Positions 2,137 through 62,850 of a stretch of DNA of 64,000 nucleotides are shown piece after piece. Made by a program: the position numbers and the translations under genes. The notes under the pieces are model-generated. The model made no database searches. It had not been told where the DNA came from and was given only the letters and a program-made list of their open reading frames with translations. Source of the DNA: Eubacteriales bacterium. Lineage in GTDB: Bacteria > Bacillota > Clostridia > Oscillospirales > CAG-382. The stretch is from positions 467 to 64,466 of the forward strand of contig JAZNZY010000001.1 of NCBI GenBank assembly GCA_045595165.1, read 5' to 3'. How positions within the stretch are numbered: the first letter of the stretch is position 1; every line of letters starts with the position of its first letter.

Positions 2137-2198
2137 AATGAGAAATGCGGAATGCGGAATGAGAAATTTCGGTAGTTTTTTGCGTGACGCAAAAAACC
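2137..2198. repeat. H element (heptamer-armed hairpin), one arm
   Basis: AATGAGA/AATGCGG heptamers, ATTTCGGTAG, then hairpin TTTTTTGCG...CGCAAAAAA. Confidence 0.8.
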
Positions 2199-2245
2199 GT
2201 GTAATTGTTTTTGAAATGTGCCGTCTGTAGAACTGAAAGTTTGAA

Positions 2246-2505
2246 GGGCGCGGAGCATTTGGATGCAGAAAACATCTTTCGCGAGTGGAGAGCTGTAGTA
2301 ACCTACTGCCTCCCGAGCGAAAGTGTTTACAAAAACGCAAACAAAATAAAATTTTGGAGACGATTTTCGTCGGAAAAATTTTTACCTATTAATGTGTTAT
2401 TAAAGCGGCGGGGGCAAGCCACCCGCCCTACAAATGGAAAATAACTAAACAGAAATATTTATATATTTTTTGCGTTTTTGGGTCTGCGCCGAATGAACGC
2501 GCTCC
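2246..2505 (+). repeat. L element copy 1
   Basis: GGGCGCGGAGCATTTGGATGCAG...CTGCGCCGAATGAACGCGCTCC; internal GCTGTAG hairpin, AAAAACGCAAA/TTTGCGTTTTT helix, REP-like hairpin ending CCCTAC. Confidence 0.9.
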
Positions 2506-2511
2506 TCATAA

Positions 2512-2537
2512 AAAAACGGCGATTTCTCGCCGTTTTT
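2512..2537 (-). terminator. Intrinsic terminator
   Basis: AAAAACGGCGA-TTTC-TCGCCGTTTTT directly after the stop at 2538. Confidence 0.75.
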
Positions 2538-3398
2538 CTACTTTATATCTTCTATAACCTTTTCAGGCTTTTCATCCAAAACTTCGGGATTGGACAAAAT
2601 GGTGCGGAGGTATTTGAGCGCGGAGGCGAAATAGTGTCCGTCGCAGACGCGCTCGTCGGTAACCACGCAGTAATCCACGTACTTTCTGTCAACGGGAGAG
2701 CCGTTTTTATCCAGCTCTACCGCGCTTCTCTTTGCGCCGAAGGATATAAACAGAGGCACGTTACCGAAATTATATATATGGTGGTAAATGGGAGGAATTC
2801 CCAAAGAGCCCATAGATGTAATTATCATAGATCCGTGGAAGGGGGAAAGCTGAGAAAGCGAGCGGGGCAGCATACGGTGGTAGTCCATCTTCTTAAGCAC
2901 CCACACGGCGAATTTAAGAACAAATCTGGGAAGAGATCCGAGTATTTTTGCAACATCATCAAAGCTGCTCACCTCGTTGCGGGCGGTGTCTATCTCCTTG
3001 TTTACGATACGGTAAACGTCCTCTGCGGTGGCATCCGGCGGGAATTCCATTTTTATGACCGTATCAGGCGCATCGAGGCGCATTTCTTTTTTTATGGTCA
3101 TTGCCACCTCGATATTATTGCGGGCGTACACGCGCTGTCCCCGTACAAAGCGGTTTATTCCGGGGCGCTGGGATACGGTGCGCACGTATGCGGCAATAAG
3201 CAGATGCATTATACCGAATCCCTTTAAGCCTTCTTTTCTCTTTTTAAAAATATAATCGTCTGCTGCGGCGGTTTCGAAGCTGTCCCGTATCTGGTTGCAG
3301 GCGTCGTTGCGCTCTGCCATAATAACACATTCTATGTTCGTCATAGGGGAAATGGTCTTTAATCTTCTGCCTTCTTGCCAGGAGTGCTTTATTTCCAT
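2538..3398 (-). CDS. Stand-alone 2-oxoacid dehydrogenase E2-like acyltransferase catalytic domain protein
   Basis: GSMIITSMGSLG and DERVCDG resemble the E2 catalytic domain (TxSNxG, DHRxxDG); no lipoyl domain; GAGG SD upstream. Confidence 0.75.
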   Translation of the reverse strand: MEIKHSWQEGRRLKTISPMTNIECVIMAERNDACNQIRDSFETAAADDYIFKKRKEGLKGFGIMHLLIAAYVRTVSQRPGINRFVRGQRVYARNNIEVAMTIKKEMRLDAPDTVIKMEFPPDATAEDVYRIVNKEIDTARNEVSSFDDVAKILGSLPRFVLKFAVWVLKKMDYHRMLPRSLSQLSPFHGSMIITSMGSLGIPPIYHHIYNFGNVPLFISFGAKRSAVELDKNGSPVDRKYVDYCVVTDERVCDGHYFASALKYLRTILSNPEVLDEKPEKVIEDIK

Positions 3399-3419
3399 AG
3401 ATATACCTCACTCGTTTTT

Positions 3420-3540
3420 AATGAGAAACGAGGAATGCGGCGCGATGCAAAGCATCGCTAAATGAGGAATTTCGGAAGATTTTTGTTCTGCGAACAAAAA
3501 TCAACCGTAATTCATCATTTCTCATTCATCATTCGTCATT
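3420..3540. repeat. H element with two core hairpins
   Basis: Heptamer arm, GCGATGC-AAA-GCATCGC, GATTTTTGTTC-TGC-GAACAAAAATC, inverted heptamer arm. Confidence 0.9.
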
Positions 3541-3542
3541 TT

Positions 3543-3571
3543 ATTATACTTGTAAAATTGTAAATTGTCAA
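3543..3571 (-). promoter_or_regulatory. Consensus sigmaA promoter for the E2-like gene
   Basis: TTGACA (3571-3566)-17 bp-TATAAT (3548-3543). Confidence 0.85.
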
Positions 3572-5167: not shown

Positions 5168-5208
5168 AAAAGCACCCCAAGAAAACTGCGTTTTCTCGGG
5201 GTGCTTTT
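5168..5208. terminator. Bidirectional terminator-like hairpin related to the C module
   Basis: AAAAGCACCCC-AAGAAAAC-TGC-GTTTTCTC-GGGGTGCTTTT after SBP stop. Confidence 0.7.
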
Positions 5209-6185: not shown

Positions 6186-6250
6186 GCGTTTTTGGGGTGA
6201 TTTTTTTCGGGGTCCCTGAAAACGCGAATAGCGTTTTTGGGGTGATTTTT
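6186..6250 (-). repeat. C module with partial duplication
   Basis: Reverse complement reads ATCACCCCAAAAACGC-TATTC-GCGTTTTCAGGGACCCCG followed by a second ATCACCCCAAAAACGC. Confidence 0.8.
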
Positions 6251-10946: not shown

Positions 10947-11002
10947 CCCCGAGAAAAATCACCCCAAGAAGCCTTTCGGCTTCTCGGGGACCCCGAGAAA
11001 AA
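10947..11002 (+). repeat. C module flanked by a 12-bp direct repeat
   Basis: CCCCGAGAAAAA-TCACCCCAAGAAGCC-TTTC-GGCTTCTCGGGGA-CCCCGAGAAAAA. Confidence 0.8.
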
Positions 11003-15874: not shown

Positions 15875-16801
15875 ATGGAAAAAATTTACCATTCGGCAGA
15901 TGCGCTGATCGGGCGCACACCGATACTTGAACTGAATAATATAAAAAAAGAATACGGGCTTGAGTGCCGTATTCTTGCAAAGCTTGAATCCTTTAACCCC
16001 GCAGGAAGCGCCAAGGACAGAGTGGCAAAATATATTCTGGACGAGGGAGAAAAGCAAGGTATAATCAATAAAAACACGGTTATTATCGAGCCTACCTCGG
16101 GCAACACGGGTATTGGTCTTGCCGCACTTTGCGCGGTGAGGGGGTATAAATGTGTTATCGTTATGCCCGAAAATATGTCGGAAGAGCGGAAAATGCTTAT
16201 ATCCGCATACGGCGCATCCCTTGTGTTGACACCCAAAAGCGAGGGGATGGACGGCGCCATAAAAAAAGCAAACGAGCTTTTGCGGGAGATCAAAAACAGT
16301 ATAATTGCCGGGCAGTTTACAAACCCCGCAAACCCCAAAGCCCATTACGAAACCACGGGCAGAGAAATATATGAAGATACCGACGGAAACGTGGATATAT
16401 TTGTCTGCGGTGTGGGCACGGGCGGTACGATAACCGGCACGGGCAAGTTTTTAAAAGAGAAAAAGGGCAATATAAAAATAGTGGCTGTTGAGCCAAGCAG
16501 ATCCCCCGTCCTCTCGGGCGGAGAAAAGGGAAGCCACGGCTTGCAGGGGATCGGCGCAGGGTTTGTCCCCGCGGTGCTGGATACCTCCGTTTACGATACG
16601 GTGCAGACCGTAACCGAGGAGGAAGCCTTTGAATGCGCACGAATGCTTGCAAAAACAGAAGGCATCTTAGCGGGAATTTCCTCGGGAGCAGCCCTCCACG
16701 CCGCGATATGCGAAGCAAAAAAGGAAGAAAATATGGGAAAAACCATAGTCGTCCTCCTTCCCGACACGGGAGAAAGATACCTCACAGCAGGACTGTTTTA
16801 A
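15875..16801 (+). CDS. cysK: Cysteine synthase A
   Basis: NPAGSAKDR (PLP Lys), [23 protein letters not shown]. Confidence 0.95.
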
Positions 16802-16886
16802 CGATGAACTATGAACTATGAACGATGAACTATGAACTATGAACTATGAACTATGGAAGTTTTTGGTCAGCAGACCAAAAACTACC
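16801..16886. repeat. H element (ACTATGA/ACGATGA arm), one arm
   Basis: About 8 tandem heptamers starting at the cysK stop, then GTTTTTGGTC-AGCA-GACCAAAAAC-TACC. Confidence 0.85.
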
Positions 16887-16923
16887 TATTAAGATCTTCA
16901 CAGCAGCAAGATAGAAGAAGGTT

Positions 16924-17172
16924 TTAAGACCGGGGATTTGGATGCAGAATGAATTTTTACGAGCGATAGCTGTAGTATTCTACAGCGAGCGAAGTAAAAA
17001 TTTATAGAAACGCGAATAAAAAGGAATTCCGTAGGCGATTTTCGTCTACGGAATTTTTACCTTATTTTGTAATTAAAGCGGCGGGGGCAAGCCACCCGCC
17101 CTACATTGGGGGATTTGCTGAACGGAACTATATATTATTCGCGTTTCGGTCTGCGCCGAATCCACGTCTTAA
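16924..17172 (+). repeat. L element copy 2
   Basis: TTAAGAC..GGATTTGGATGCAG...CTGCGCCGAATCC..GTCTTAA; same internal helices as copy 1. Confidence 0.9.
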
Positions 17173-19448
17173 AACTGGTTCTTGCGCCAGCGGAGGACAA
17201 ATACCGCAGCCCCGCCCACAACCGCCAGAGCGATTATAACCAGCGCGATTATGAGTCCCACGTTAACGGAGGAGGGAGCCTCGAACACTACGGTGAAGGT
17301 GTGATCCTTATCCATGGTTACGGTGTAAACGCCGTCCTCGGCGATATCGATCTCCTCGCCGTCAAGAGTGATCTTTCCTACAACGTATCCCTCGTTGGGA
17401 GTTACGGTGATGGTCTTTGTTTCGCCCAAAGCGACCTTGATGGTGCCGGAGGGGTCTACGGTACCGCATTCGGTGTTATAGGTTACGGTGAGAGTTGCCT
17501 TGTCCTCGGAAACCTCAACGAATACAAGGTCCTTCTGGTTGGAATAATTAACGGTTGCCCAGCCCTTTTCGTCCGCCGTAAGGGTATCGCCTATGGAATT
17601 GAGAGCGCCGGAAAGGAATTCAGCGGGAGAAAGGTCTGCGCCGGAGAATTCGTTGCCCAAGTATATCTCAAGCACGGTGCCTGCGGGGAGTGCGGGAGAA
17701 GTGCAATATACGGTTACGAAGGCGGTGGAAGGATATTCGGTGGAAACCGCATCCTGAATAGCAACGAAATTGGGGCTTCCGTTACGCATAAAATCAAAGG
17801 AAACCGTATCTCCCTCGGGGTTGAACGCACCGCCGCCGGGGATAACAAGGGAAAATTCGCTGTCGTTAATAAGAATCTTCTTTTCGGGATAATTGGAAGC
17901 GGCGCGCTGGAAAATCTCGGTAGAAACGTTGGATTTTTCGGTAACGTCGATAACGATGGTTTCTGCGGTCCAATCAATATCCTCAACGGTGATAGGCGCA
18001 TCGTTTACGGTAGCCTTCTTGAAGGTTGCGCTTATAACCATATTGGCAGATACGTTCTTAATGGTGTATTTACCGCCGGTGAGGGTTACGTCCTCGCCGT
18101 CAACGGTTACGGAATATATTTCGTATCCTTCGTTGGCGGTGATGGTGAAGGTAATATCTCCGCCCTCTTCGATCTCGTTTGCGCCTGCGGGAGTGATAGT
18201 GCCGCCGCCGGAAACGAACGCGGTTACGGTATAGAATACCTCTTCGTTTTCCTCGGTGGAACGGAAGGTTGCGGAAACGGTTGCCGCAGTATCGGTACAT
18301 TCTATGGTATATTCGTTATCCTCGTTAAGCTTTACGGTCTTGCCGCTTACCTTAACGGTGTTGAGCTCGTAATTAACGTGGGGCTCGAAAACGAGAGTGA
18401 TGCTTTCACCAACGGGAACGTATATGTACTTTTTGCTCTCGATCTCGTACAGCTCGTCCTTTACGGTGATAGAGCCGCCGTTGCCGACAGAAAGGGTGAT
18501 CTTGCAGTAATCAACCTTTTCCTTGAAGGTTACGGAAACGGTAATATCTCCCTCGGGAGTGAAGGTGTACTGGTTGTCTTCGATCTCTACGGCTTCTTCG
18601 TTTACAAGCACTTCGTCAACCTCATAGCCTTCATCGGGAACGAAGGTGAGGGTGGAATTTATGCCCTGAGGAACAACGGTTTCGCCGGAAACGGAAACGC
18701 CGTTAAGCAAAACGGAGCCGTTCTCGCCAACGGTAACGGTTGCGCCGTAGGTTTCCAATGCCTCAACAACTACGAGATAACCGGTGTTCTCAACCAGCTT
18801 ATCCTCGTGAGGATTGTCGATATCCATATATCTGGTGCCGGTGAAATATCTGGTCTGCTTGATAGCATAACCGGGCTTTGCGAAAAATTCGATAGTGAAA
18901 TCGGTATTTTCCTCAAGACGTGCATTTCCGTTATAGGATTCGCCGTTAACCTTGAAGTACGCGCCGTCAACGGGAGCGCCGTCGGTATCCACGCACTCAA
19001 CGGTGATGGTGTAGGTGGTAACCTGTCTGAACGTAATTGCAACTTCGTGGTTTGCGGTTACGGTGAAGGTATATGCGCCGTCCTTTGCTTCAACAGCGGT
19101 GCCGTCCACGGTAACGGTATCTACCAGATATCCGTCATTGGAAGTAACGGTAAGAACGGCGGTATCGCCGGTAACGTAATAATATTCGTTCTTGGAGGGA
19201 CGGCTTCCCTCGGTGCTTTCAAGAGTATAATCTCCTCCCGTGCCGCAGGAAACGGTAACGGTGAGATCCTCTTTGACCGCGGGCTCGCTTACCTCGGGGA
19301 TGCTCTCCTCGGGGATGCTCTCCTCGGTTTTGGAAGTATCCTCGATCACTTCGCTTACGTCGCTGGTTTCAGCAAACGCGGCGAAGGGCACGAGCATAAG
19401 AGCTATGATTGCCGCCAGTAAAAAGGCGGTAAGTTTACGTGAAAACAT
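17169..19448 (-). CDS. Cell-surface protein with multiple InlB B-repeat-like domains and C-terminal TM anchor
   Basis: Signal peptide; about six repeats of the type (G/T)xxGx(I/V)...F.PxEGY.(V/I)..V.V(D/N)G; hydrophobic tail plus RWRKNQF. Confidence 0.8.
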   Translation of the reverse strand: MFSRKLTAFLLAAIIALMLVPFAAFAETSDVSEVIEDTSKTEESIPEESIPEVSEPAVKEDLTVTVSCGTGGDYTLESTEGSRPSKNEYYYVTGDTAVLTVTSNDGYLVDTVTVDGTAVEAKDGAYTFTVTANHEVAITFRQVTTYTITVECVDTDGAPVDGAYFKVNGESYNGNARLEENTDFTIEFFAKPGYAIKQTRYFTGTRYMDIDNPHEDKLVENTGYLVVVEALETYGATVTVGENGSVLLNGVSVSGETVVPQGINSTLTFVPDEGYEVDEVLVNEEAVEIEDNQYTFTPEGDITVSVTFKEKVDYCKITLSVGNGGSITVKDELYEIESKKYIYVPVGESITLVFEPHVNYELNTVKVSGKTVKLNEDNEYTIECTDTAATVSATFRSTEENEEVFYTVTAFVSGGGTITPAGANEIEEGGDITFTITANEGYEIYSVTVDGEDVTLTGGKYTIKNVSANMVISATFKKATVNDAPITVEDIDWTAETIVIDVTEKSNVSTEIFQRAASNYPEKKILINDSEFSLVIPGGGAFNPEGDTVSFDFMRNGSPNFVAIQDAVSTEYPSTAFVTVYCTSPALPAGTVLEIYLGNEFSGADLSPAEFLSGALNSIGDTLTADEKGWATVNYSNQKDLVFVEVSEDKATLTVTYNTECGTVDPSGTIKVALGETKTITVTPNEGYVVGKITLDGEEIDIAEDGVYTVTMDKDHTFTVVFEAPSSVNVGLIIALVIIALAVVGGAAVFVLRWRKNQF

Positions 19449-21456: not shown

Positions 21457-21495
21457 ATATCTCGTTTCATATTTTTTCAGAAAGGATATATCATT

Positions 21496-42777: not shown

Positions 42778-42792
42778 AACAACAGGTGTATT

Positions 42793-44393: not shown

Positions 44394-45011
44394 ATGCTTT
44401 CACCACGATTACAAGCAGCAGCCGATCTTATAACCTACGCCGATTCCATCATTGACATCGGTACGGATCACGGATATTTACCCATATATTTGCTTAAAAG
44501 CGGCAAGACGAAGACGGCGTGCGCAGCGGATATACGGATCGGCCCTCTTGACAACGCCAGAGAAAATATATTATCCTATGGCGTGGAGTGCGAATGCATA
44601 CTTTCCGACGGGTTTAAAAATATATGTAAAAAATACTCCCTCGCCTGCATTTGCGGTATGGGAGGAGAAACCATTGCAAATATTATTACCGAAGGTAAAA
44701 ATATCACCCCCGATACGCTGATATTACAGCCAATGACGGGGGCAGACAAGTTGCGCAAATTTTTGTTTGAAAACGGGTATACCGTAACCGACGAAGCCTT
44801 CGTTACCGAGGGTGAAAAGGTATACTGCATAATAAAAGCCCATAAAACGGGGGAAAACACCCCCTATACATATTCCGACTTGTTTTTGGGACATATCCGC
44901 CCGAAAACAGAGGGATATATAAAATGGAAAGAAAAAGTCCGCCTGCAAGCAGAAAAACGGCTTCTGGGCGGAAGGAACAAAGCTGATGAACAGCTTTGCA
45001 ATGAGGAATGA
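44394..45011 (+). CDS. trmK: tRNA (adenine22-N1)-methyltransferase
   Basis: LSPRLQ, DIGTDHGYLP, LSDG, ICGMGGETI, LILQP. Confidence 0.9.
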   Translation: MLSPRLQAAADLITYADSIIDIGTDHGYLPIYLLKSGKTKTACAADIRIGPLDNARENILSYGVECECILSDGFKNICKKYSLACICGMGGETIANIITEGKNITPDTLILQPMTGADKLRKFLFENGYTVTDEAFVTEGEKVYCIIKAHKTGENTPYTYSDLFLGHIRPKTEGYIKWKEKVRLQAEKRLLGGRNKADEQLCNEE

Positions 45012-45156
45012 GGAATGAGGAATGAGGAACGAGTAACCCACCCCAAAAACGCATAGCGTTTTCGGGGAACCCCGGGAACGAGGAATTTCGGAAGATTTTT
45101 GTTCGCAGAACAAAAATCAACCATCATTTCTCATTTATCATTTATCATTCCTCATT
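45000..45156. repeat. H element with nested C module (45036-45076)
   Basis: (AATGAGG)4 arm encodes the trmK end NEE*; GATTTTTGTTC-GCA-GAACAAAAATC. Confidence 0.9.
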
Positions 45157-45160
45157 AAGA

Positions 45161-46239: not shown

Positions 46240-46394
46240 GGGACGCGTTCATTCGGCGCAGATTATTTAATGAGGAATGAGGAATGAGAAATGAGGAATT
46301 ACGGTAGCTTTTTCGCGTAAAGACGCGAAAAAGGTTTCCATCATTCATCATTTAGCATCGCGTACGCGATGCGTCGCATTTATCATTCATCATT
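46240..46394. repeat. L-terminus fragment fused to an H element
   Basis: GGGACGCGTTCATTCGGCGCAGA, then heptamer arm, CTTTTTCGCGT..ACGCGAAAAAG, GCATCGCG-TA-CGCGATGC. Confidence 0.85.
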
Positions 46395-46407
46395 TTTGGA
46401 GTTACTT

Positions 46408-49010: not shown

Positions 49011-49672
49011 TCTATCTCGTTGATCTGATGTTTATCGGAAACTATATCTTTATCCCCTTTTACGGGCAAATGATATATTTCCTCTTGTGTATGGTCTGCG
49101 GTTATCTGCTGGGAAGCATTAACACGGCGATAATCGTGAGCAAGAAAAAGTACGGAAAAGATATACGTAACTTCGGCTCGGGCAACGCGGGTCTTACCAA
49201 TATGAAGCGTGTCTACGGCTGGGGCGCCGCAGGATATACCCTCCTTGGGGATATGGGCAAGCAGGTTGCCGCTGTGGGTATCGGTATGTTTTTGGGACAC
49301 GTGCCCGGCGCATATATTGCAGGTCTGTTTTGCATTATAGGTCATATCCTCCCCTGCTGGTACGGCTTTAAGGGCGGAAAGGGCGTGCTTACCGCCGCCA
49401 CACTTATTCTGCTGCTTGACCCTATGGTGTTTGCCATCCTGCTCATAATCTGGTTTGCTGTACTGCTTCTTACCAGATACGTTTCCCTGGCTTCTATCGT
49501 AGCCGCATTCGCATATCCCGCCGCTATGTACGCAAGATATCAGGGAAAAGACCCGTTCTCCCTCATTTTCGCCCTTGTTATCGGTCTTTTTGTAATATAT
49601 ATGCACAGAAGCAATATTAAGAGATTATTCAATAACCAGGAAAGCAAGTTTACGTTTAAAAATAAAAAGTAG
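49007..49672 (+). CDS. plsY: Glycerol-3-phosphate acyltransferase PlsY
   Basis: GYLLGSI, DIRNFGSGNAGLTN, FKGGKGV, HRSNIKRL; start position uncertain. Confidence 0.93.
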   Translation: MIYLVDLMFIGNYIFIPFYGQMIYFLLCMVCGYLLGSINTAIIVSKKKYGKDIRNFGSGNAGLTNMKRVYGWGAAGYTLLGDMGKQVAAVGIGMFLGHVPGAYIAGLFCIIGHILPCWYGFKGGKGVLTAATLILLLDPMVFAILLIIWFAVLLLTRYVSLASIVAAFAYPAAMYARYQGKDPFSLIFALVIGLFVIYMHRSNIKRLFNNQESKFTFKNKK

Positions 49673-49675
49673 CGG

Positions 49676-49945
49676 GGAGCGCGTTCATTCGGCGCAGAAC
49701 CAAAAACGCAAAAGCAAGAGTAAGATATTTCGATAACCGTAGGGTACGACGTCCTCGTCGTACCGCCTCTCACAGTTTAGAGGTAGAAATTCTTACAGAA
49801 TTTCTTTAAATTTAATTTATTTGCGTTTTTGTAGAAATTTTCGCGTCGCTCGCTGTAGTTTACTACAGCTACCGCTAGCGAAAATTCCTTCTGCATCCAA
49901 ATGCTCCGCGCCCTTCAGACTTTCTGCGCTACAGACGTTACATAT
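49676..49945 (-). repeat. L element copy 6 (inverted) with left extension
   Basis: GGAGCGCGTTCATTCGGCGCAG...CTGCATCCAAATGCTCCGCGCCC; extension matches 2217-2245. Confidence 0.92.
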
Positions 49946-50039
49946 CAAAAATTTAACTTAAAATCCGCGTACAGCGGATTTTTACCGAACCTTTTCACTC
50001 TTCACTTTTCACTCTTAACTTTTTATAGGGGTATATACT

Positions 50040-51278
50040 ATGCCACTTGCCGATTCCATCCGCCCCACGACCCTTGCCGAAATGGCAGGTCAGGAGCATT
50101 TATTACAAAACGGCGCCCCGTTGCGCCGCATATTGGAAAGCGGACATTTGCCCTCCATGATATTTTACGGTCCCCCCGGCACGGGAAAGACCACCCTTGC
50201 AAATATCGCGGCGAAATTGACCGAAAAACAGATTTTCCGCATAAACGCCACCACTGCATCTCTTTCCGACGTAAAAGAGGTTTTACAGGAAACGGACAGT
50301 CTGTTTTCCGCAGGGGGAATACTGCTGTATATCGATGAAATTCAGTATTTCAACAAAAAGCAGCAGCAGGCGCTCCTCGAATACGTGGAGGACGGCAGAG
50401 TTACCCTTATTTGCTCCACCACCGAAAACCCCTATTTCGCCCTGTACGGCGCGTTACTTTCCAGAAGCACGGTTTTTGAATTCAAGCCCGTGTCCCCAAA
50501 GGAATGTCTTAAAACCTTAAAGCGGGGTCTTGAAGCGCTTAACGAGCAAACGAACGGTAACAAAAAGTGCGATGACGCCTTGCTTTTGGATATTGCATCC
50601 GGTTGCGGCGGGGACGTGAGAAAATCTCTTACCGCGCTTGAAAACCTGTATTACGCCAGCGTGGGCGACGAGATCGAAAAGGATTTTGCAAACAGCCTCA
50701 TTCAGAGAAGCGGTATGCGGTTTGACGTTAGCGGCGACGTGCATTACGATATCCTTTCCGCATTCCAGAAATCTATTCGCGGCAGCGACGAAAACGCCGC
50801 TGTCCATTACCTTGCCCGTCTTCTTGCGGGAGGAGATCTCCTTTCCCCCTGCAGACGTCTGCTGGTTATCGCCAGCGAGGATATAGGACTTGCCTACCCT
50901 CAGGCGGTGAGTATGGTAAAAGCCTGCGTGGATTCAGCCCTTCACCTCGGTCTGCCCGAAGCGGGACTCCCTCTGGCTGAGGCTACCATTCTTCTTGCCA
51001 CCGCGCCAAAGAGTAATTCCGCATCTGCCGCATATTGGGCGGCGATGGAGGACGTGGAAAACGGACTTGCCGTTTCTGTTCCCTCTCATTTGCAGGATAC
51101 CCATTATTCCGGCGCGAAAAAATTGGGCAGAGGCGGATATAAATATCCCCACGCATATCCCAATAACTTCGTGGAACAGCAGTACCTGCCCGACGAACTG
51201 AAGGACAAGGTGTACTACGTACCGGGAACCAATAAGACCGAGCAAGCCATGAAGGAATATTGGTTAAAAGTAAAATGA
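50040..51278 (+). CDS. rarA: Replication-associated recombination protein A (RarA/MgsA)
   Basis: PLADSIRP, GPPGTGKTT, IDEIQYFNK, AFQKSIRGSD, ASEDIGLA. Confidence 0.95.
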   Translation: MPLADSIRPTTLAEMAGQEHLLQNGAPLRRILESGHLPSMIFYGPPGTGKTTLANIAAKLTEKQIFRINATTASLSDVKEVLQETDSLFSAGGILLYIDEIQYFNKKQQQALLEYVEDGRVTLICSTTENPYFALYGALLSRSTVFEFKPVSPKECLKTLKRGLEALNEQTNGNKKCDDALLLDIASGCGGDVRKSLTALENLYYASVGDEIEKDFANSLIQRSGMRFDVSGDVHYDILSAFQKSIRGSDENAAVHYLARLLAGGDLLSPCRRLLVIASEDIGLAYPQAVSMVKACVDSALHLGLPEAGLPLAEATILLATAPKSNSASAAYWAAMEDVENGLAVSVPSHLQDTHYSGAKKLGRGGYKYPHAYPNNFVEQQYLPDELKDKVYYVPGTNKTEQAMKEYWLKVK

Positions 51279-51394
51279 GGAATGCGGAATGCGACGCGAT
51301 GCAAAGCATCGCTAAATGAGGAATTTCGGAAGATTTTTGTTCACAGAACAAAAATCAACCATCATTTCTCATTCATCATTCATCATTCCTCATT
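51274..51394. repeat. H element with two cores
   Basis: Near-identical to 3420-3540; supplies the rarA stop. Confidence 0.9.
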
Positions 51395-51401
51395 AAAAAA
51401 T

Positions 51402-51859: not shown

Positions 51860-52246
51860 ATGACAAGACGTGAATCCCGCGAGGCGGCTCTTTGCCTCAT
51901 TTACGAGCAGACTTTTTCCCCCGAAATAAGCACCGACGAGATTATTGAAAAAGCAAGGGAGATCCGCGAAGAGAAGGTTTCGGATTTTGCCGCCACCCTC
52001 TTTAACGGTGTTTGCCAGAATACCCAAAACCTTGACCTGCGTATTTCTGCCGCGGCGGAAAAATGGTCGCTGGACAGAATTTCCCGCGTTTCCCTTTCCG
52101 TACTGCGCCTCGCCGCATACGAGATAATATATCTGGGCACCGAGAAGCAGATCGCCGTTAACGAAGCATTGGAGCTGGCGAGAAAATATGATGATGAGAA
52201 AGCGGTAAGCTTTATTAATGGAGTACTTGCAGGCATAATAAATTAG
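51860..52246 (+). CDS. nusB: Transcription antitermination factor NusB
   Basis: TRRESREAA, WSLDRIS, AVNEALELA, FINGVL. Confidence 0.95.
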   Translation: MTRRESREAALCLIYEQTFSPEISTDEIIEKAREIREEKVSDFAATLFNGVCQNTQNLDLRISAAAEKWSLDRISRVSLSVLRLAAYEIIYLGTEKQIAVNEALELARKYDDEKAVSFINGVLAGIIN

Positions 52247-52483
52247 GACATCCTCATTCGGCGCAGAACCAAAAACGCAAAAGCAAGAGTAAAATGTTTC
52301 GATAACCGTAGGGACAGACGTCCTCGGCTGTCCGCCTCTATTAGTTCAGAGGTAGAAATTCTTACAGAATTTCCTTATATTTTATTTATTTTGCGTTTTT
52401 GTAGAAATTTTCGCGTCGCTCGCTGTAGTTTACTACAGCTACCGCTAACGAAAATTTCTTCTGCATCCAAATGAGTTAGTCCT
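52245..52483 (-). repeat. L element copy 7 (inverted)
   Basis: AGGAC-ATC-CTCATTCGG...CCAAATGAG-TTA-GTCCT. Confidence 0.92.
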
Positions 52484-54796: not shown

Positions 54797-54928
54797 GCAT
54801 CCTGCGGATGCGTGATATGTTGCGTACCGCAACGTGATATGAACACTCCGTGTTCGTGATATGCCACTGCGGGGCGTGATATGTTGCTACGCAACGTTTG
54901 GGTAGTTTTTTGCGAGAACGCAAAAAAC
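54797..54928 (+). repeat. G array copy 1: five triloop hairpins joined by GTGATAT, then an H-type core
   Basis: GCATCC-TGC-GGATGC, GTTGCG-TAC-CGCAAC, GAACAC-TCC-GTGTTC, GCCAC-TGC-GGGGC, GTTGC-TAC-GCAAC. Confidence 0.9.
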
Positions 54929-54950
54929 AATTAATTAAAATTATTGATAT

Positions 54951-55200
54951 GTAACGTCTGTAATAACTAAAAGTCTGATTGAAGCCGGCGGCTGTATAAA
55001 CAAACCAGAATGAATTTTCAGGCGCGGGGTGCTGTAGAAATCTACTGCCCCCCGACTGAAAATTTATAGAAAAACGCAAATAAAAATAAAAAGAAATCCG
55101 TATAAAACGGATTTCTACATTAAGATGAACAAAAAAGAAACGGCAAAGAAAAAAATCTTCTTTGCCGTACTTTTATTTATCTGTTTGCGTTTTTCGGTCT
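54951..55200 (+). repeat. L element variant (copy 8) containing the probable jag terminator hairpin (55140-55168)
   Basis: ATGTAACGTCTGTA extension, TTTTCAG..GCTGTAG-AAAT-CTACTGC..CTGAAAA, AAAAACGCAAA...TTTGCGTTTTT. Confidence 0.75.
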
Positions 55201-55221
55201 GGGAAGTTTAGACAGTCGCCG

Positions 55222-57309: not shown

Positions 57310-57443
57310 TTTTTTGCATTTTTGCAAAAAACATACCGAAACGTTGCGAAGCAACATATCACGTGCGTGAAACGCACATATCACGAACACGGAGTGTTCA
57401 TATCACGTTGCGGTACGCAACATATCACGCATCCGAAGGATGC
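57310..57443 (-). repeat. G array copy 2 (inverted relative to copy 1)
   Basis: ATATCAC x4 between GTTGC-GAA-GCAAC, GTGCGT-GAA-ACGCAC, GAACAC-GGA-GTGTTC, GTTGCG-GTA-CGCAAC, GCATCC-GAA-GGATGC. Confidence 0.9.
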
Positions 57444-57668
57444 TCAACGCTTCCTTTTCGGCACCGGATCGTACCCGCCCTTGCAAAGGGGCTGGCAGCG
57501 CAAAAGCCGCCAAAGGCTTAAAAAAATGCCGATAATAACGCCCCATTCCTCGATCGCCTCGATAGCGTATTGAGAGCAGGTGGGATAAAAACGGCAGTTT
57601 GCCCCAAGAGAGGGTGATACGTGTTTTTGATAAAAGCGTATTGGTGCGGTAAAAATTTTTTTAAACAT
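57444..57668 (-). CDS. yidD: Membrane protein insertion efficiency factor YidD
   Basis: [31 protein letters not shown]. Confidence 0.95.
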
Positions 57669-58437: not shown

Positions 58438-58583
58438 AATGATGAATGAGAAATGATGAATGAGGAATTTCGGTACGTTTTTTGCATTACGCAAAAAACT
58501 TTTTTTGATTATTTAATTATTTAAAATTCGCGTGATGCGAATTTTTACCATAATTTCTCATTTCTCATTCCGAATTCCTCATT
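58438..58583. repeat. H element in the rpmH-dnaA spacer
   Basis: Heptamer arm, TTTTTTGC..GCAAAAAA, AAAATTCGC-GTGAT-GCGAATTTT, inverted arm. Confidence 0.8.
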
Positions 58584-58591
58584 AAAAAAAC

Positions 58592-60003: not shown

Positions 60004-60040
60004 TCACCCCACAAAACTTCGTTTTGCGGGGACCCCGAAA
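60004..60040 (+). repeat. C module directly after the dnaA stop
   Basis: ATCACCCCACAAAAC-TTC-GTTTTGCGGGGACCCCG. Confidence 0.85.
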
Positions 60041-60059
60041 AATATCTGTTGACTTTAAT

Positions 60060-60250
60060 TAACAAATATTTTCGGTTTTACACACCTTTTTCAAAAAAAC
60101 CGACATAATTTTACACAGGTTTTCAACATTCTTTCAACAGGAAATTTCACTTTTAAAAAATATAAAAAACGTTTTAAAAATAAATATTTTTTATACTTTT
60201 CCACAAACCTGACACGGTCAATAATCAATAATACCTACAACAAAACCTTT
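60060..60250. other. oriC (dnaA-dnaN intergenic part)
   Basis: Boxes TTTTACACA (60076, 60109), TTTTCAACA (60120), TTTTCCACA (60197); AT-rich 60140-60200; NAN-periodic tract AAT AAT CAA TAA TAC CTA CAA CAA resembling DnaA-trios. Confidence 0.8.
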
Positions 60251-60303
60251 TAACACTTGATTCTTGCTACACTCTGTACACAGACAAGGAGATTTTTGAA
60301 AAA

Positions 60304-61428
60304 ATGGCTATTAAGTTTATAACCGACAGAAAGACACTTCTTTCTTTAATACAGCCGGCTATGACGGCTACTTCAAATAAAAGCACACTCCCCGCTTTGG
60401 AAGGATTACTTTTAAGCCTTGAAAAAGACGGTGTGCTTACCGTTTGCGGATATGACCTTGAAAAAGGCGTAAAGACCTCCTCCCCCGTTTATCCCAAGGA
60501 GGTAGGAAGCGTAATACTCAACGCCCAAAAGATATACGCAATTATTAAAAATATGCCCGAATGTGAAATAGAGATAAATGCGGACGAGAAAAACGCCGTT
60601 ACCATTAAAGGCGGCGCTTCCGAATTTACTATTCACGGTCTGGCGGCAGAGGCGTTCCCGAACCTGCCAGAGCTTATCGGCGACAGATCCTTTACCATCA
60701 CTCAAGGGCTGTTAAAGGAAATGATAAATTCCACCATCTTCGCCGTGGCGCAGATAGACGCCCGCCCCATACTTACGGGAGAGCTTTTCCAGATAGAGGA
60801 AAACAAGCTTACCATAGTTGCTCTTGACGGCGCCCGTCTTGCTCTGCGTGAAGAAAAGAACGCTGTTTTTGATAATAAAGAAACCTTCCGTTTTGTTGTG
60901 CCCGGAAAATCCCTTTCCGACCTGTGCAAGCTGATAACGGATAACGATGAAATGATGAAGGTTGAATTCACACGCAAGCATATCGTGTTCCGTATAGGCG
61001 ATATTATCTTTTTCTCCCGTCTGCTTGAGGGCGAATATCTTGATTACACCCGCGCGCTGCCTCAGCAAAGCAAGATTTTCGTTGAGGTAGAAAGAAGCGA
61101 GTTTATAGAAAGCGTGGAAAGAGCGTCCCTGCTGGTTGACGAAAGACTTAAAACTCCCCTCCGCTTCCGTTTTGAGGATACCTTGCTTCACGTTTACTGT
61201 TCTACCCAGTATGGCAAGGTAAACGATCAGGTAAGAATTAAAAAAGAGGGCGACGATCTGGAGATAAGCTTTAATAACCGTTATCTTTTAGATGCGCTCC
61301 GCGCCTGCAAGGACGAAACCATACTTGCATCTCTTACGGGACCGCTGACATCTATGATGCTCACTCCCGTAGGACACAGAGATTCTTCGTATATATATCT
61401 GGTACTCCCCTGCAGAGTTAAAAGCTGA
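60304..61428 (+). CDS. dnaN: DNA polymerase III beta clamp
   Basis: STLPALEG, ELFQI...VALDGARL, RLLEGEY, FNNRYLLDAL. Confidence 0.96.
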   Translation: MAIKFITDRKTLLSLIQPAMTATSNKSTLPALEGLLLSLEKDGVLTVCGYDLEKGVKTSSPVYPKEVGSVILNAQKIYAIIKNMPECEIEINADEKNAVTIKGGASEFTIHGLAAEAFPNLPELIGDRSFTITQGLLKEMINSTIFAVAQIDARPILTGELFQIEENKLTIVALDGARLALREEKNAVFDNKETFRFVVPGKSLSDLCKLITDNDEMMKVEFTRKHIVFRIGDIIFFSRLLEGEYLDYTRALPQQSKIFVEVERSEFIESVERASLLVDERLKTPLRFRFEDTLLHVYCSTQYGKVNDQVRIKKEGDDLEISFNNRYLLDALRACKDETILASLTGPLTSMMLTPVGHRDSSYIYLVLPCRVKS

Positions 61429-62510
61429 TGCAGATAAACGACCTTTATTTAAAGGATTGGCGTAACGGAGAGGAGAATAAGATATCCTTTTCGCCGGATA
61501 CCACCCTTATCTGCGGCGAGAATGCCGCAGGAAAGACGAATTTGCTGGAGGGTATATGTTTCTTTGCCGCGGGAAAAAGCTTCCGCGGATGCAAGGATAA
61601 GGAGCTTATACGCTTCGGGTGCGATTCCGCCTCCGCAGATATTACCTATACGTCAAGAGGCGTAACCAACAAAATGGGTGTGCGTCTTAAAAAGAACGCC
61701 AAAAAGACATTCCTTAAAAATAACGTGCCCATATCCAAAATGAGCGAATTTTTGGGCGCGTTCAGATGCGTTATATTCACCCCCGATCATCTTGATCTGG
61801 TAAAGGGCGCTCCCGAGGGAAGAAGACGGTTTATAGATATGGCGATATGCCAATCCTTCCCCCGTCACGTAGCCGCATTAAACGAATATAACCGTCTGCT
61901 TATACAAAAAAACGCTCATTTAAAAGGAAACGCTGTGTTCGACGAGCTGCTTGACGTTTACGACGAGCGTATGGCGGCTCTTGCCGCGAATATTACCGTA
62001 AACAGAAAAAAATATATAAAAGCTTTGGAAGAAAGCGGAAAAAGGTTTCTTTACGATATGTCGGTGGAGAGGGAGGAAATGTCCCTTACCTATATCACCC
62101 AAAGCGAGGGTGAAACGGCAAACGAGATAAAAGAAAGCTATACTGCGCTTTTTAAGGAAAAGCGGAGTACGGAAATTGAAAAGAGAATGACTCTGTGCGG
62201 CACTCAAAAGGACGATTTTTTAATACACATAAACCGCAAAAGCGCAAAAAGCTACGGAAGCCAGGGACAGCAGCGAAGCGTGGTCCTTGCCCTTAAGCTG
62301 GCGGAGGGTGAAATTTCAAGATCCCTTACGGGTGAATACCCCGTATTTTTGCTGGACGACGTGCTGAGCGAATTGGATGACAGCCGCAGAGAGTATATTT
62401 TAAAGCGTATCGAGGGCAGACAGGTGATTATCACCGGCTGTGATGAAAGTCTGATCGACATTCTCCCCCGCGCGCAGGTAATAAAGGTGGAAATGGGCAA
62501 ATGTTTGTAA
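61428..62510 (+). CDS. recF: DNA replication and repair protein RecF
   Basis: GENAAGKTNLLE, RRRFIDM, GSQGQQRS, LLDDVLSELD. Confidence 0.96.
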   Translation: MQINDLYLKDWRNGEENKISFSPDTTLICGENAAGKTNLLEGICFFAAGKSFRGCKDKELIRFGCDSASADITYTSRGVTNKMGVRLKKNAKKTFLKNNVPISKMSEFLGAFRCVIFTPDHLDLVKGAPEGRRRFIDMAICQSFPRHVAALNEYNRLLIQKNAHLKGNAVFDELLDVYDERMAALAANITVNRKKYIKALEESGKRFLYDMSVEREEMSLTYITQSEGETANEIKESYTALFKEKRSTEIEKRMTLCGTQKDDFLIHINRKSAKSYGSQGQQRSVVLALKLAEGEISRSLTGEYPVFLLDDVLSELDDSRREYILKRIEGRQVIITGCDESLIDILPRAQVIKVEMGKCL

Positions 62511-62749
62511 ACCCCGGAAATGATATAAGTATAAAAAAGAAAGAAATTATCGGTATTTTTAATATGGATACCGCAACCGTTTCCCCCGTTACCAAGGATT
62601 TTTTGAAAAATGCCGAAAAGGAGCTTAAGGTGGTCTACGCAGGTAAGCGTATGCCCGAGAGCTTCGTGGTGTCGGACGATGGAATATCGGAAAGCGTGTA
62701 TATAAGTTCATTTACGGCGGATACGCTGGTGAACAGAACGGAGAAGTAA
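62501..62749 (+). CDS. DUF370/RemB-like protein
   Basis: IIGIFNMDT, YISSFTADTL; usual position between recF and gyrB. Confidence 0.8.
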   Translation: MFVNPGNDISIKKKEIIGIFNMDTATVSPVTKDFLKNAEKELKVVYAGKRMPESFVVSDDGISESVYISSFTADTLVNRTEK

Positions 62750-62850
62750 TGAGAAATGATAAATGATAAATGATGAATGATGGTTGATTTTTGCGTAAAA
62801 CGCAAAAATCTTCCGTAATTTCTCATTCCTCATTCCTCATTCCTCATTCC
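62749..62850. repeat. H element
   Basis: AATGATA arm, GATTTTTGCG-TAAAA-CGCAAAAATC, (TTCCTCA)n arm ending at the gyrB SD. Confidence 0.9.

Follow-up and report, generated by a model that had tools for sequence, protein, structure and literature searches.

Interlocking hairpin-forming repeat families in the intergenic spacers of an uncultured ruminant-gut Clostridia bacterium

Relation to described repeat systems

Palindromic repeats of the MITE type include the ERIC/IRU and Correia/NEMIS elements and pneumococcal BOX, and the cyanobacterial STRR is one of several intergenic heptamer tandem repeats. The MITE-type repeats are reviewed in PMC3184786, and further heptamers are described as TAACTGA in Beggiatoaceae (PMC4679880) and as GGGAATC in Xanthomonas and Nostoc (PMC4692102). 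REP and BIME sequences of Enterobacteria and Pseudomonas, and REPINs, whose known spreading enzyme is the RAYT transposase (PMC2817692, PMC3116915, PMC3733652), are short GC-rich imperfect palindromes present in tens to hundreds of copies, and the Rfam motif Gut-1 (RF01706) was described as a likely non-coding RNA from human-gut metagenomes only (Weinberg et al. 2010, PMC2864571).

Here, we analyzed a 64,000-nt stretch of DNA (the window) from an uncultured ruminant-gut Clostridia bacterium, represented by a metagenome-assembled genome (39 contigs, 2.05 Mb, 97% complete), in which repeats occupy the spacers separating housekeeping genes. Reading and alignment revealed several interlocking, hairpin-forming repeat families. 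All five module families reported in the initial annotation of the window were found where it had placed them (17 H, 8 L, about 10–12 C, 10 GTAG-REP, and 2 G arrays), and its view that they are non-coding and conserve structure was supported. On balance, we favor reading the system as a REP/BIME/MITE-like mosaic that is RAYT-independent and partly constrained.

Like REP/BIME sequences, the modules are short, GC-rich palindromes with imperfect pairing, numbering from tens to hundreds. One of them carries the GTAG tag, and either orientation occurs at their sites, which are the 3' ends of genes and the spacers of co-directional gene pairs. Hairpins and linker motifs form mosaic composites in a defined order, as in BIMEs, and the families are lineage-specific, related species filling the same spacers with different versions. 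Unlike REPINs and their RAYTs, these modules have no associated RAYT or other Y1 gene, and the host belongs to the Clostridia, whereas Firmicutes go unmentioned in the REP survey (PMC3733652). The modules further differ from REP/BIME sequences in their arms of tandem heptads, in a 250-nt scaffold whose long-range stems covary, in the polar array-core-E-L composite, and in a conservation of retained copies far above that of four-fold sites. With MITE-type repeats they share a length of 100–300 nt, complementary termini, folding into long hairpins, modularity, nested insertions, and placement, either way round, in intergenic DNA that is transcribed; unlike MITEs, they have no constant target duplication, no empty site for L, and no parent insertion sequence that we could find, and L subfamilies show covariation in their internal stems, for which terminal inverted repeats alone are an insufficient explanation. 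As in the TAACTGA, GGGAATC, and STRR repeats, the heptads form intergenic arrays of 7-nt period and variable unit number, with stops in all frames in one reading direction and a particular heptamer per lineage. Here, in contrast, they form two inverted arms around an A/T-clamped hairpin or a single arm beside L, a hairpin is possible between every unit, and several heptad flavors occur per genome. The G arrays resemble Gut-1 in their small hairpins and 7-nt linker, which reads GTGATAT here and GUGAAAU in the Rfam model, but, unlike the motif as described (PMC2864571), they reach up to 40 copies per genome and are joined to an H-type core and L. The overall arrangement had been considered unrecognized; this stands insofar as no described family is arranged in this way and no Rfam family matched H, L, or C, but not for the G arrays, which are Gut-1, or for the REP module, whose GTAG tag is known.

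Repeat families of the window

L is a structured multi-hairpin scaffold of ~250–290 nt, with 39 near-full copies in the genome (nhmmer) and eight in the window, one of them degenerate. In L, 97.5% of cells were paired compared with 83.3% after shuffling, compensatory changes occurred in 23 of 38 pairs, and the covariation score was 0.446, compared with 0.171 for shuffled and at most 0.118 for slid controls. A hand count from the pair tables gave ~37 G.U versus 6 A.C cells on the top strand. The polar composite has the order heptad array, core, linker, E, and L, with heptad arrays left of 12–13 of the 39 L copies and right of none. The first composite (2137..2510, +) comprises a heptad array (2137–2166), an A/T-clamped core (2170–2197), a linker, the E motif (2220–2250, +; CCGTCTGTAG..AAAGTTTGA), and L copy 1 (+), which starts at about 2225–2250, ends at 2510, and contains a GTAG-REP at ~2400–2427. 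At 16800..17175 (+), eight AACKATG heptads and a core (16853–16886) precede L copy 2 (16905–17175, +), which also has an internal GTAG-REP. L copy 3 (29935..30235, +), upstream of gpmI, holds a GTAG-REP and a C element (29998–30040) with CGGGA direct repeats at both boundaries; the reported nesting of both REP and C within L was confirmed by reading and alignment. L copy 4 (34635..34895, +) occupies the spacer between an upstream gene and ytfJ. The stretch at 39850..40255 (−) mirrors the polar composite, with a degenerate L (39850–40190), an inverted GTAG-REP pair (~40095–40184), and a core with a right heptad arm (40194–40252). The full polar composite at 49665..50030 (−) contains L copy 5 (49665–49912), E, a core hairpin (49960–49990), and a heptad array of GTGAAAA/GTGAAGA flavor. 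L copy 6 (52240..52480, −) lies upstream of xseA, and a composite at 54797..55215 (+) joins a G array, core, linker, and E to L copy 7 (54985–55215).

H elements are heptad-armed palindromes, with 23–26 cores genome-wide and 17 copies in the window. In the core, 97.5% of cells were paired compared with 87.8% after shuffling (score 0.255 versus 0.073), and the A.A/T.T bubble of the GGAAG..CAACC core is kept across copies and species. The heptad arms, ~70% paired, matched their own partners (0.70) no better than those of other copies (0.73–0.76), indicating a shared heptad vocabulary rather than copy-specific covariation. The claim that stems vary yet stay paired thus holds for L, C, and the H core, which exceeded the shuffled or slid controls, but not for the H arms.

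At 3420..3545 (+), H has the GGAAG..CAACC orientation and carries the S hairpin GCGATGCAAAGCATCGC within its left arm; at 21331..21462, the orientation is GGTTG..CTTCC and S lies in the right arm. The copy at 22327..22452, directly 3' of a terminator hairpin, has the core subtype GGAAACC..GCTACC and S in its right arm, and S is also present at 26441..26567 and in the left arm at 51274..51395. Reading and alignment bore out the nesting of C within H at 31899, 41215, 42709, and 45040: the element at 31863..32010 runs left arm, C (31899–31931), core; that at 41104..41266 holds S and C (41215–41247) in its right arm; that at 42610..42782 has S in the left and C (42709–42741) in the right arm; and that at 44998..45160 has C (45040–45072) in the left arm. 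The fusion of an L end to H was likewise found at 46243..46395, where a 23-nt L terminus (GGGACGCGTTCATTCGGCGCAGA, 46243–46268) adjoins an H with S. Other copies lie upstream of leuS (37327..37430), in the malQ/trmK spacer (44272..44372), and at 58438..58585, where an additional hairpin is inserted at the junction of core and right arm. H typically starts at or overlaps a stop codon and ends just 5' of the next ribosome-binding site, as at 62748..62850, where the first heptad and the upstream frame's stop codon overlap.

The GC hairpin C gave 10 full covariance-model matches and a partial copy at 5175 in the window, and ~140 copies in the genome. Its cells were 93.4% paired compared with 79.8% after shuffling (score 0.345 versus 0.109), and a mismatch after the CCCC clamp is conserved across copies and species. 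The partially matching C-type hairpin at 5173..5206 (+) lies 3' of a gene end, is followed by a T run, and is terminator-like. Further copies occur at 6209..6243 (−; GGGGTGA direct repeats at its flanks), 10961..10994 (+; 56.1 bits, the top model score of the window), 25701..25733 (+; gene junction), and 60006..60036 (+; 100% conserved in the relative G002, in a spacer 77% identical as a whole).

GTAG-REP, with 10 copies in the window and 64 in the genome, has the tag directly 5' of a GC-rich stem, the layout that defines REPs; a solitary copy at 36952..36980 (+) reads CGTAGGG-stem-CGTCCTCG-stem-CCGC. It is the only module with this known tag. The G arrays correspond to Gut-1, an orphan Rfam motif that behaves as a multi-copy repeat. 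Array 1 (54797–54925, +) consists of five hairpins with GTGATAT joints and scores 45.1 bits over 54832–54903; array 2 (57310..57452, −; array proper 57310–57445) scores 37–44.7 bits, both below the Gut-1 gathering score of 50. The match is full-length (model positions 1–77), and three further copies in the genome score above the 50-bit threshold. Gut-1 is present in 22 of 31 related genomes; its hits number up to 30–40 per genome and often form mirror pairs on opposite strands, the behavior of a repeat element. The H-type core said to be attached to the G arrays follows each of them.

Turnover and constraint at orthologous spacers

The proposed search for filled and empty orthologous sites revealed both, together with wholesale replacement at spacers, a pattern that fits non-autonomous mobile elements without an internal enzyme gene. 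Compared with G002, with which four-fold site identity is 0.70, roughly half of the occupied spacers have different occupants. Swaps between sister species replace L with H or one H subfamily with another, invert an element in place, or add or remove C, which was seen to be present or absent within H and L copies that are otherwise orthologous or paralogous. At 34635..34895, three sister species have H, G007 has L with C, and G001 has no element; at 37327..37430, G002 has the same H with a 40-nt C insert, and G008 and G004 have a different H subfamily with identical boundaries. In a sister species (locus L002), the composite at 42610..42782 lies inverted in its entirety at the same place. The site at 44272..44372 is inverted in place in L001, holds L instead in L004, and is empty in L006, and that at 46243..46395 holds a partial L in the more distant G007. 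At 52240..52480, G002 has H, G004 has a mirror hairpin array with GTTACAT linkers within H arms, and the 41-nt spacer of G001 is empty. Both loops and entire elements flip in place. The in-place inversion share of the turnover needs no dedicated enzyme.

In H-bearing species, the same spacers are always occupied, whichever the family, and in the more distant G001 the orthologous spacers are short and empty. Retained H copies are 91–97% identical compared with 65–73% at four-fold sites, although this estimate comes from few copies and is biased upward by the choice of retained ones; their site-specific stem/loop alleles are unchanged, and they are also more conserved than element-free spacers. 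The G008 orthologue of 26441..26567, for instance, is 97% identical, compared with 65% at the four-fold sites of the neighboring gene. Conservation so far above the neutral expectation points to constraint or host function. The initial annotation had not included constraint or host function in its interpretation.

No clean target-site duplication was found, nor a fixed length (C junctions share 2–5 nt of microhomology), and for none of 71 L copies did we find an empty site. The elements are enriched in convergent and co-directional spacers and depleted in divergent ones (L, 15 versus 3; C, 51 versus 14). We found no orientation bias with respect to replication or transcription (relative to flanking genes, C 32:26, H 8:8, L 4:11); strand-specific single-strand transposition would predict such a bias, and its absence counts against the mosaic reading that we favor.

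Lineage distribution, candidate movers, and alternative explanations

A scan of relatives placed H and L in this genus only and C additionally in one sister-genus genome. Within the genus, seven genomes carry 19–26 copies of H, two carry 1–2, and one has none; H was absent from 141 genomes of 14 other genera. L has 28–33 copies in five genomes and 10 in G007, with none in 55 other genomes, and strict-pattern matches to C number 66 here, 6 in the sister-genus genome, and 0 in 79 others sampled from the order. The RAYT/IS200-605 TnpA or reverse transcriptase proposed as the enzyme did not materialize: this 97% complete genome contains no RAYT/Y1_Tnp, reverse transcriptase, or TnpB, and 8 of the 10 genomes of the genus lack a Y1 transposase. 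The notion of a non-autonomous mobile system thus agrees with the site evidence and with the lack of an enzyme gene inside the elements, but not with the enzymes suggested for it. The Y1 genes of G006 and G007 were rejected as movers; they are near-identical IS200-like insertions with end hairpins of their own and, contrary to the suggestion that such genes would be flanked by the modules, do not adjoin C, REP, L, or H. All movers tested (RAYT/Y1, reverse transcriptase, TnpB, and a paralogous tyrosine recombinase) were absent or had the wrong distribution across genomes. About 15 of the 78 contig ends lie within repeats, indicating that the assembly breaks there. As a metagenome-assembled genome in 39 contigs, it could lack a multi-copy or plasmid-borne enzyme.

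The conservation of retained copies, the constant occupancy of the same spacers by varying families, and the span of H from stop codon to ribosome-binding site would also suit host-serving cis elements of transcripts, interchangeable between families at a site, whose operon or 3'-end hairpins would stabilize upstream mRNA, attenuate transcription, or insulate translation, and whose heptads would confront incoming ribosomes with stop codons. Stops in all three frames of the arms are indeed found in 8–13 of 21 copies on inward reading versus 4 of 21 outward, and all-frame stops are reported for the TAACTGA heptamers (PMC4679880). We nevertheless consider this explanation unlikely, as the elements show no orientation preference relative to flanking genes, the families are confined to one genus, the H arms are not maintained as a good stem, and the empty spacers of G001 imply that a cis function is dispensable. 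Moreover, C stems carry G.U-type and A.C-type mismatches on the mRNA strand at equal frequency (25 versus 30), so their asymmetry tracks the element and not the transcript. An ordinary REP/REPIN system whose RAYT was recently lost or is missing from the draft assembly has a slim chance: it would account for the GTAG-tagged module, the presence of CGTCTGTAG in E, the inverted REP pair, and the contig ends within repeats, and REPtron loss is known in some lineages (PMC3733652), but Y1_Tnp is missing here and in seven further genus genomes, the Y1 genes of G006 and G007 are IS200-like and stand apart from the modules, and H, C, and L have no REP-type GTAG foot.

Slimmer still is the chance that the repeats are mutational by-products devoid of real mobility, with slippage expanding heptads, template switching making or symmetrizing palindromes, and convergence and ectopic gene conversion producing the similarity between copies. 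Heptad numbers from 2 to >12 between orthologues and paralogues, the flips in place, the short microhomology at C junctions, and the indifferent pairing of the arms agree with such processes; complex asymmetric sequences (the 250-nt L, E, the A.A-bubble core, and the C tail) nevertheless recur at unrelated loci, keeping conserved mismatches that symmetrization would erase, identical composites pairing H with a particular C allele are found at several loci, and the families have expanded to tens of copies inside one genus. It is barely credible that L and the G arrays are multi-copy genes for trans-acting non-coding RNAs, for example a heptad-presenting protein sponge, despite the similar hairpin-linker-hairpin layout of sponge RNAs. 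The strong covariation of L, its G.U-rich top strand, and the proposal of Gut-1 as a non-coding RNA (PMC2864571) speak for such genes, but no recognizable promoter or terminator was found at the L boundaries, L is confined to this genus, copies are nested, fused to other repeats, truncated, and replaced between species, and the multiplicity and opposite-strand mirror pairing of Gut-1 are likewise at odds with them.

Under the favored reading of a partly constrained mosaic, H and L would be copied into each other as well as into permissive gene-end spacers, and C, GTAG-tagged REP, S, and the Gut-1-type hairpin and heptad arrays would be the small building units. Copies would derive from master copies, the folded single strand with its conserved mismatches serving as the signal recognized by a candidate trans-acting factor, and in-place inversion may result from recombination or template switching between inverted arms. 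Retained copies would be constrained through an acquired role at gene ends, most likely as transcript or DNA hairpins, and the system would, on balance, be the counterpart in Clostridia of MITEs and of REP/BIME mosaics such as those of E. coli.

Composition and nesting of the repeat families

Repeat finding combined with direct reading of the window confirmed all of the module families at the positions at which the initial annotation had placed them. The assembly that carries them is a 97% complete MAG of 2.05 Mb in 39 contigs, of which the window is C1:467–64466, and the related MAGs come from uncultured Clostridia/Oscillospiraceae of the hindgut of goat, cattle, buffalo, yak, and deer. Ordinary housekeeping genes, most of them on the + strand, surround the window repeats; they include gpmI, ytfJ, leuS, malQ, trmK, xseA, a pseudouridine synthase gene, a DUF512 radical-SAM gene, and the gene of an MgsA-type AAA+ ATPase.

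The heptad-armed palindrome H (17 copies in the window and 23–26 in the genome) has a left arm composed of AATGAGG, AACGATG, or AACTATG heptads, a right arm composed of complementary heptads, and a conserved core, (A)TTYC-GGWAG-T5-variable stem-loop-stem-A5-CWWCC-AT. Small hairpins named S (GCGAC-GC..GC-TAAATGA) lie between the heptads of many H arms. L is a structured multi-hairpin element of 240–300 nt with eight copies in the window and 39 near-full copies genome-wide (nhmmer). The small GC hairpin C (CACCCC-stem-loop-stem-GGGG-A-CCCC-GA) occurs in 10 full window copies according to a covariance model and about 140 times in the genome, and GTAG-REP, a GTAG-tagged hairpin of the form (C/T)GTAGGG-stem-CGTCCTCG-stem-CCGC, occurs 10 and 64 times, respectively. 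The two G arrays each consist of five small hairpins joined by GTGATAT and followed by an H-type core. Across the assembly, H and L occur mainly on contigs C1, C21, C14, C15, and C5, and the C hairpin is found on most contigs.

The proposed nesting of these modules was also borne out. The C hairpin lies within L near 30000 and within H at 31899, 41215, 42709, and 45040; GTAG-REP is found within L, and at 46243 an L terminus abuts H. A constant series of modules precedes L on its left in at least 18 of the 39 copies, consisting of an array (heptads of any flavor or a G array), the A/T-clamped core, the linker TGTAATTGTTTTYGAWA, the E motif (CCGTCTGTAG-N5-AAAGTCTGA), and L itself, indicating that the modules are joined in a fixed, BIME-like order. 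This composite is polar, as 12–13 of the 39 L copies have a heptad array within 170 nt on the left side and none has one on the right. The window contains it at 2137–2510, 16800–17175, and 54797–55215 and in mirror image at 49665–50030 and 39850–40255. L copies of a second class, which have CATTTGGATGCAGAA termini (29935, 34635, and 52240), carry neither the array nor E.

Several further arrangements were noted in the window. Additional heptad flavors, GTGAAAA/GTGAAGA (CTTTTCA/CTCTTCA on the + strand), are present at 49990–50030 and 58110–58160, where they adjoin the A/T-clamped hairpins AAAATCCGCG..CGCGGATTTT and AAAAACCGAC..GTCGGTTTTT as half elements with a single arm. At 40095–40184, two inverted GTAG-REPs face each other with their GTAG ends across a 24-nt spacer, forming a REPIN-like doublet in a genome without a RAYT, the Y1 HUH transposase known to spread REP repeats. 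The long "spacer" between the genes at 45361–45981 and 46369–47706 contains a small ORF (46015–46197), which appears to encode ribosomal protein L32; an H at 46269 lies downstream of the terminator of this ORF.

Relation to described repeats and taxonomic distribution

No Rfam family reached its gathering score in the window, and H, L, and C were without an Rfam match. A relaxed scan of the window (E up to 1) returned Gut-1 (RF01706) as the sole relevant match. The G arrays scored 45.1 and 37 bits against this model (45.1 and 44.7 in the search of the whole genome), compared with a gathering threshold of 50, and both matches were full-length (model positions 1–77, E = 1e-5 to 1e-7); they share with Gut-1 a layout of hairpins joined by a 7-nt linker. 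Ten matches were found in the genome, three of them above the threshold (65.6, 59.7, and 59.1 bits), indicating that the Gut-1 family is present and that the window copies are divergent members. Matches occurred in 22 of 31 related genomes, with up to 40 per genome and often as adjacent pairs on opposite strands. Several genera of the order carry 30–40 matches per genome, for example G008, G010, G020, G021, and G029. When first described (PMC2864571), Gut-1 was considered a probable non-coding RNA, and human-gut metagenomes were its only known source. In the genomes studied here, Gut-1 acts as a dispersed repeat module and not as a single-copy RNA gene.

With about 140 C hairpins and 64 GTAG-REPs, the genome resembles REP-bearing genomes in having many GC-rich imperfect palindromes of 20–40 nt outside genes, and the repeats share the location bias of REPs. 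The GTAG foot, which marks one of two REP superfamilies in a survey that mentions neither Firmicutes nor Clostridia (PMC3733652), is carried by the GTAG-REP module only; it is missing from C, S, and the H core. GTAG precedes a hairpin 64 times, more often than any of 15 control tetranucleotides (range 15–45). Unlike RAYT systems, the genome has no cognate single-copy Y1 gene flanked by REPs, and unlike palindrome-associated IS200/IS605 elements, the repeats show neither a Y1 TnpA nor a strand or orientation bias. The fixed-order mosaic with its linker motifs recalls BIMEs, an analogy of architecture alone, the sequences being unrelated to the palindromic units of E. coli.

L resembles MITEs in that its ends are terminal inverted repeats, complementary within a copy but differing between subfamilies (CATTTGG..GCAGAA / TTCTGC..CCGAATG, CTGTATAAAC / GTTTAGACAG, and GGTAAAAC..CTGTAGAA / TTCTACAG..GTTTTACC). 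No empty site was found for L among 71 copies, and no autonomous insertion sequence with matching ends, which could be a MITE parent, was found in the draft MAG. The C inserts are flanked by repeats of varying length, 2–5 nt (AA, GA, GAAC, and CGGGA).

The elements favor convergent and co-directional spacers over divergent spacers, which bear promoters and seldom contain them (15 versus 3 for L and 51 versus 14 for C, against a baseline of 186 versus 209). Element orientation followed neither the flanking genes (C 32:26, H 8:8, and L 4:11) nor GC skew or gene strand (L 6:7, C 31:34, and H 9:5), with genes for these counts called by a simple longest-ORF rule. Individual C copies, such as the one at 5173, are terminator-like in appearance. 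We rejected an identity of C as an intrinsic terminator because its T run (GGGGTGATTTT) is present in one orientation only and the copies divide into 32 sense and 26 antisense.

The H core has 19–26 copies in seven genomes of the genus (G000, G002, G003, G004, G006, G008, and G009), one or two in two genomes, and none in one, and it was absent from every one of 141 genomes representing 14 other genera of the family. L is present in 28–33 copies in five genomes and in 10 copies in the more distant G007, with no copy in 55 genomes of other genera. A strict pattern for C gave 66 matches in this genome, six in one genome of a sister genus, and none in the other 79 genomes sampled from the order. 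Viral contigs (IMG/VR) contained neither the H core nor L, and a phage origin was rejected.

Stem pairing, turnover, and conservation

The initial annotation had proposed that stems in every family change sequence but stay paired. The fold predicted for L by RNAalifold from 27 copies of this genome comprises a terminal stem, a 12-bp hairpin around a GCTGTAG..CTACAGC hairpin, another hairpin, and a long-range stem in which CAAAAACGC pairs with GCGTTTTTG. Pairing was found in 97.5% of L cells compared with 83.3% in shuffles, with compensatory double changes at 23 of 38 pairs and a covariation score of 0.446 (0.171 for shuffled alignments and at most 0.118 for slid partners). The corresponding values were 93.4% versus 79.8% and 0.345 versus 0.109 for C (64 different sequences, drawn from the window and from sister species) and 97.5% versus 87.8% and 0.255 versus 0.073 for the H core, the pairing counts of these two being model-based. 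A few loops were padded to equal length in the seed of model R1, which served solely to locate real copies. The long arms of H behaved differently: about 70% of their positions paired, the fraction was no higher with the partner arm of the same copy (0.70) than with the arms of other copies (0.73–0.76), and the observed pairing was reached by all 2000 within-flavor shuffles. Both arms are of one heptad flavor in 19 of 21 clean copies. These data indicate that the long arms match through a common vocabulary alone, so that the proposal holds for L, C, the H core, and GTAG-REP but not for the heptad arms.

 On the mRNA strand, G.U-type and A.C-type mismatches in C stems were unbiased (25 versus 30), whereas on the element's own strand they were strongly asymmetric (41 versus 14). 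A hand count from the pair tables likewise gave about 37 G.U and about 6 A.C cells on the top strand of L. The asymmetries are thus a property of the element itself rather than of the host transcript.

We compared syntenic regions from five genomes of the genus and found empty orthologous sites as well as swapped contents. All H-bearing species have the same spacers occupied, with differing contents. The spacer upstream of ytfJ, occupied by L in this genome, contains H in three species, L and C in G007, and nothing in G001; the spacer upstream of xseA contains L here and in G007, H in G002, and 41 empty bases in G001. The spacer upstream of leuS carries one or the other of two distinct H subfamilies, depending on the species, with identical boundaries. 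Between malQ and trmK, the same H is reversed in one species, replaced by L in another, and missing in a third, and upstream of malQ an entire composite (S, core, and C) is inverted in place. Between sister species, approximately half of the occupied spacers have been replaced.

The xseA-upstream spacer of G004 contains a mirror hairpin array with GTTACAT linkers inside H arms. This locus (G004:C7:48670–48991), the orthologue of window positions 52247–52510, consists of four GTTACAT-joined hairpins, a central A/T-clamped hairpin, and four ATGTNAC-joined hairpins, with the array and a C element both nested within H-type heptad arms, indicating that H and the G arrays share one design. The presence of C varies inside otherwise matching H and L copies, with only 2–5 nt shared at the junctions, and within H it invariably sits where the last heptad meets the core flank. 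Flipping of the H core loop alone was also seen (GTTC-TGC-GAAC versus GTTC-GCA-GAAC), an outcome that recombination or template switching between inverted arms would yield.

Identity at 4-fold degenerate sites was 0.70 to G002 (5044 sites), 0.73 to G008, and 0.59 to G004, and spacers free of elements were 71–89% identical. Element-bearing spacers were bimodal, being either 38–65% identical with large gaps, when replaced or inverted, or highly conserved. The H at 26412–26559 is 97% identical to its counterpart in G008, the H at 44272–44393 is 93% identical to that in G002, and the H at 37327–37430 shows 91% identity with the C insert left out; the site-specific stem and loop are unaltered in all three. 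G002 carries an identical copy of the C at 60006, in a spacer of 77% overall identity. No recombination tract was found in the coding DNA flanking the conserved copies. Retained copies evolve several times slower than synonymous sites, even allowing for the upward bias that comes with choosing retained copies, the estimates of conservation and turnover resting on few copies from one 64-kb region and 3–5 sister genomes. The replacement of half of the occupied spacers, together with 91–97% identity in retained copies versus about 70% at synonymous sites, suggests that selection or sequence recognition acts on the repeats.

Candidate enzymes and origin of the repeats

None of the enzymes searched for accounted for the repeats. 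The Y1 transposase domain of RAYT and IS200/IS605 TnpA (PF01797) is absent from eight of 10 genomes of the genus, this one included, and this genome has no reverse transcriptase (PF00078). The Y1 genes of G006 and G007 were rejected because they lie in IS200-like elements unflanked by any module. These elements (on G006:C46 and G007:C21) are nearly identical, about 0.7 kb long, and inserted at unrelated sites; they encode a Y1 transposase of about 175 amino acids, have end hairpins of their own, and are absent from this genome. No TnpB (PF07282) was found above threshold in this genome, and the lone subthreshold match corresponds to the zinc ribbon of a small membrane ORF located between tgt and valS. 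A paralogous tyrosine recombinase (C19:91777 and C26:42732) was rejected because it is missing from the H- and L-rich genomes G002, G003, G006, and G009; it is also present in other genera. The assembly contained no multi-copy transposase ORFs, and the genes bracketed by inverted modules proved to be ordinary or spurious ORFs; apart from ordinary genes, none was bracketed in a transposon-like manner. Approximately 15 of 78 contig ends lie in a C or L repeat, and a moving enzyme could therefore be missing from the draft.

Three other loci were recorded. A 351-amino acid gene lies between two inverted L copies at C5:66501–68246; it is not an obvious enzyme, and its N terminus resembles a small helix-turn-helix regulator. 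The 3' end of contig C33 carries a terminal fragment that translates as MAENFFSILKTECIYRVKLKTYE and has four BLAST matches in the genome. We take it to resemble the C-terminal part of an IS3-family transposase, and a multi-copy insertion sequence may thus be collapsed out of the assembly. Finally, AAGTCGGAGGCCAAGCGGTCTTAGGAAGACAA...CAACTCCTTGGCTCACAGAACGACATGGCTACGATCCGACTT is found at C1:73720–73800 and at the ends of contigs C2 (3'), C15 (5'), and C21 (3'). We considered an insertion sequence targeting C hairpins at contig ends and rejected it, as the sequence is BGI/MGI sequencing adapter. The adapter joins two pieces inside C1, so that the last approximately 150 bases of this contig are probably a chimeric artifact.

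Together, these data confirm the modular repeat system as originally observed and support in part its interpretation as non-autonomous, structure-recognized mobile DNA or RNA. We lean, with modest confidence, toward a lineage-specific, RAYT-independent mosaic repeat system of the REP/BIME/MITE kind. Its copies would stem from master copies, a descent that would explain the recurrence of long asymmetric sequences and conserved mismatches at unrelated loci; they would insert into permissive spacers and into one another, be flipped by recombination between arms, and be frequently replaced. The conservation of retained copies and the element-intrinsic strand asymmetry suggest recognition of a folded single strand, an acquired role at gene ends, or both.

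In the main alternative, the elements would chiefly serve the host, as transcript hairpins or insulators. Such a role fits the conservation of retained copies and their placement between stop codon and ribosome-binding site, but three observations argue against it: neither orientation nor the mRNA strand gives a signal, orthologous sites in G001 are empty, and the elements are restricted to one genus. We consider it unlikely. Less probable still are readings as a system that has lost its RAYT, as a purely mutational by-product, or as true non-coding RNA genes. More speculatively, and in our view rather improbably, a RAYT-independent machinery of a few gut Clostridia lineages might recognize folded single strands and build or maintain the polar composites, with L as an approximately 250-nt structured single-stranded DNA or RNA substrate or guide and retained copies of H, L, and Gut-1 domesticated in gene-end architecture. 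If true, this would account for the slow evolution of retained copies alongside wholesale replacement elsewhere.

Four outcomes of the analysis are the most useful: Gut-1 is re-identified as a repeat module, the L scaffold covaries and has a polar composite, RAYT is absent, and copies are conserved or else replaced. For practical work, these repeats fragment assemblies, and MAG annotation can misread them as regulatory leaders or RNA genes. The orphan Rfam motif Gut-1 gains an identity as a multi-copy repeat module of these bacteria. To our knowledge, work on REP, BIME, and MITE repeats has been confined almost entirely to Proteobacteria, in which RAYT accounts for their spread, and we know of no other enzyme that moves such repeats. 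An equally rich mosaic system in uncultured gut Clostridia without RAYT suggests that such systems can arise and turn over without this enzyme and reopens the question of how they move.
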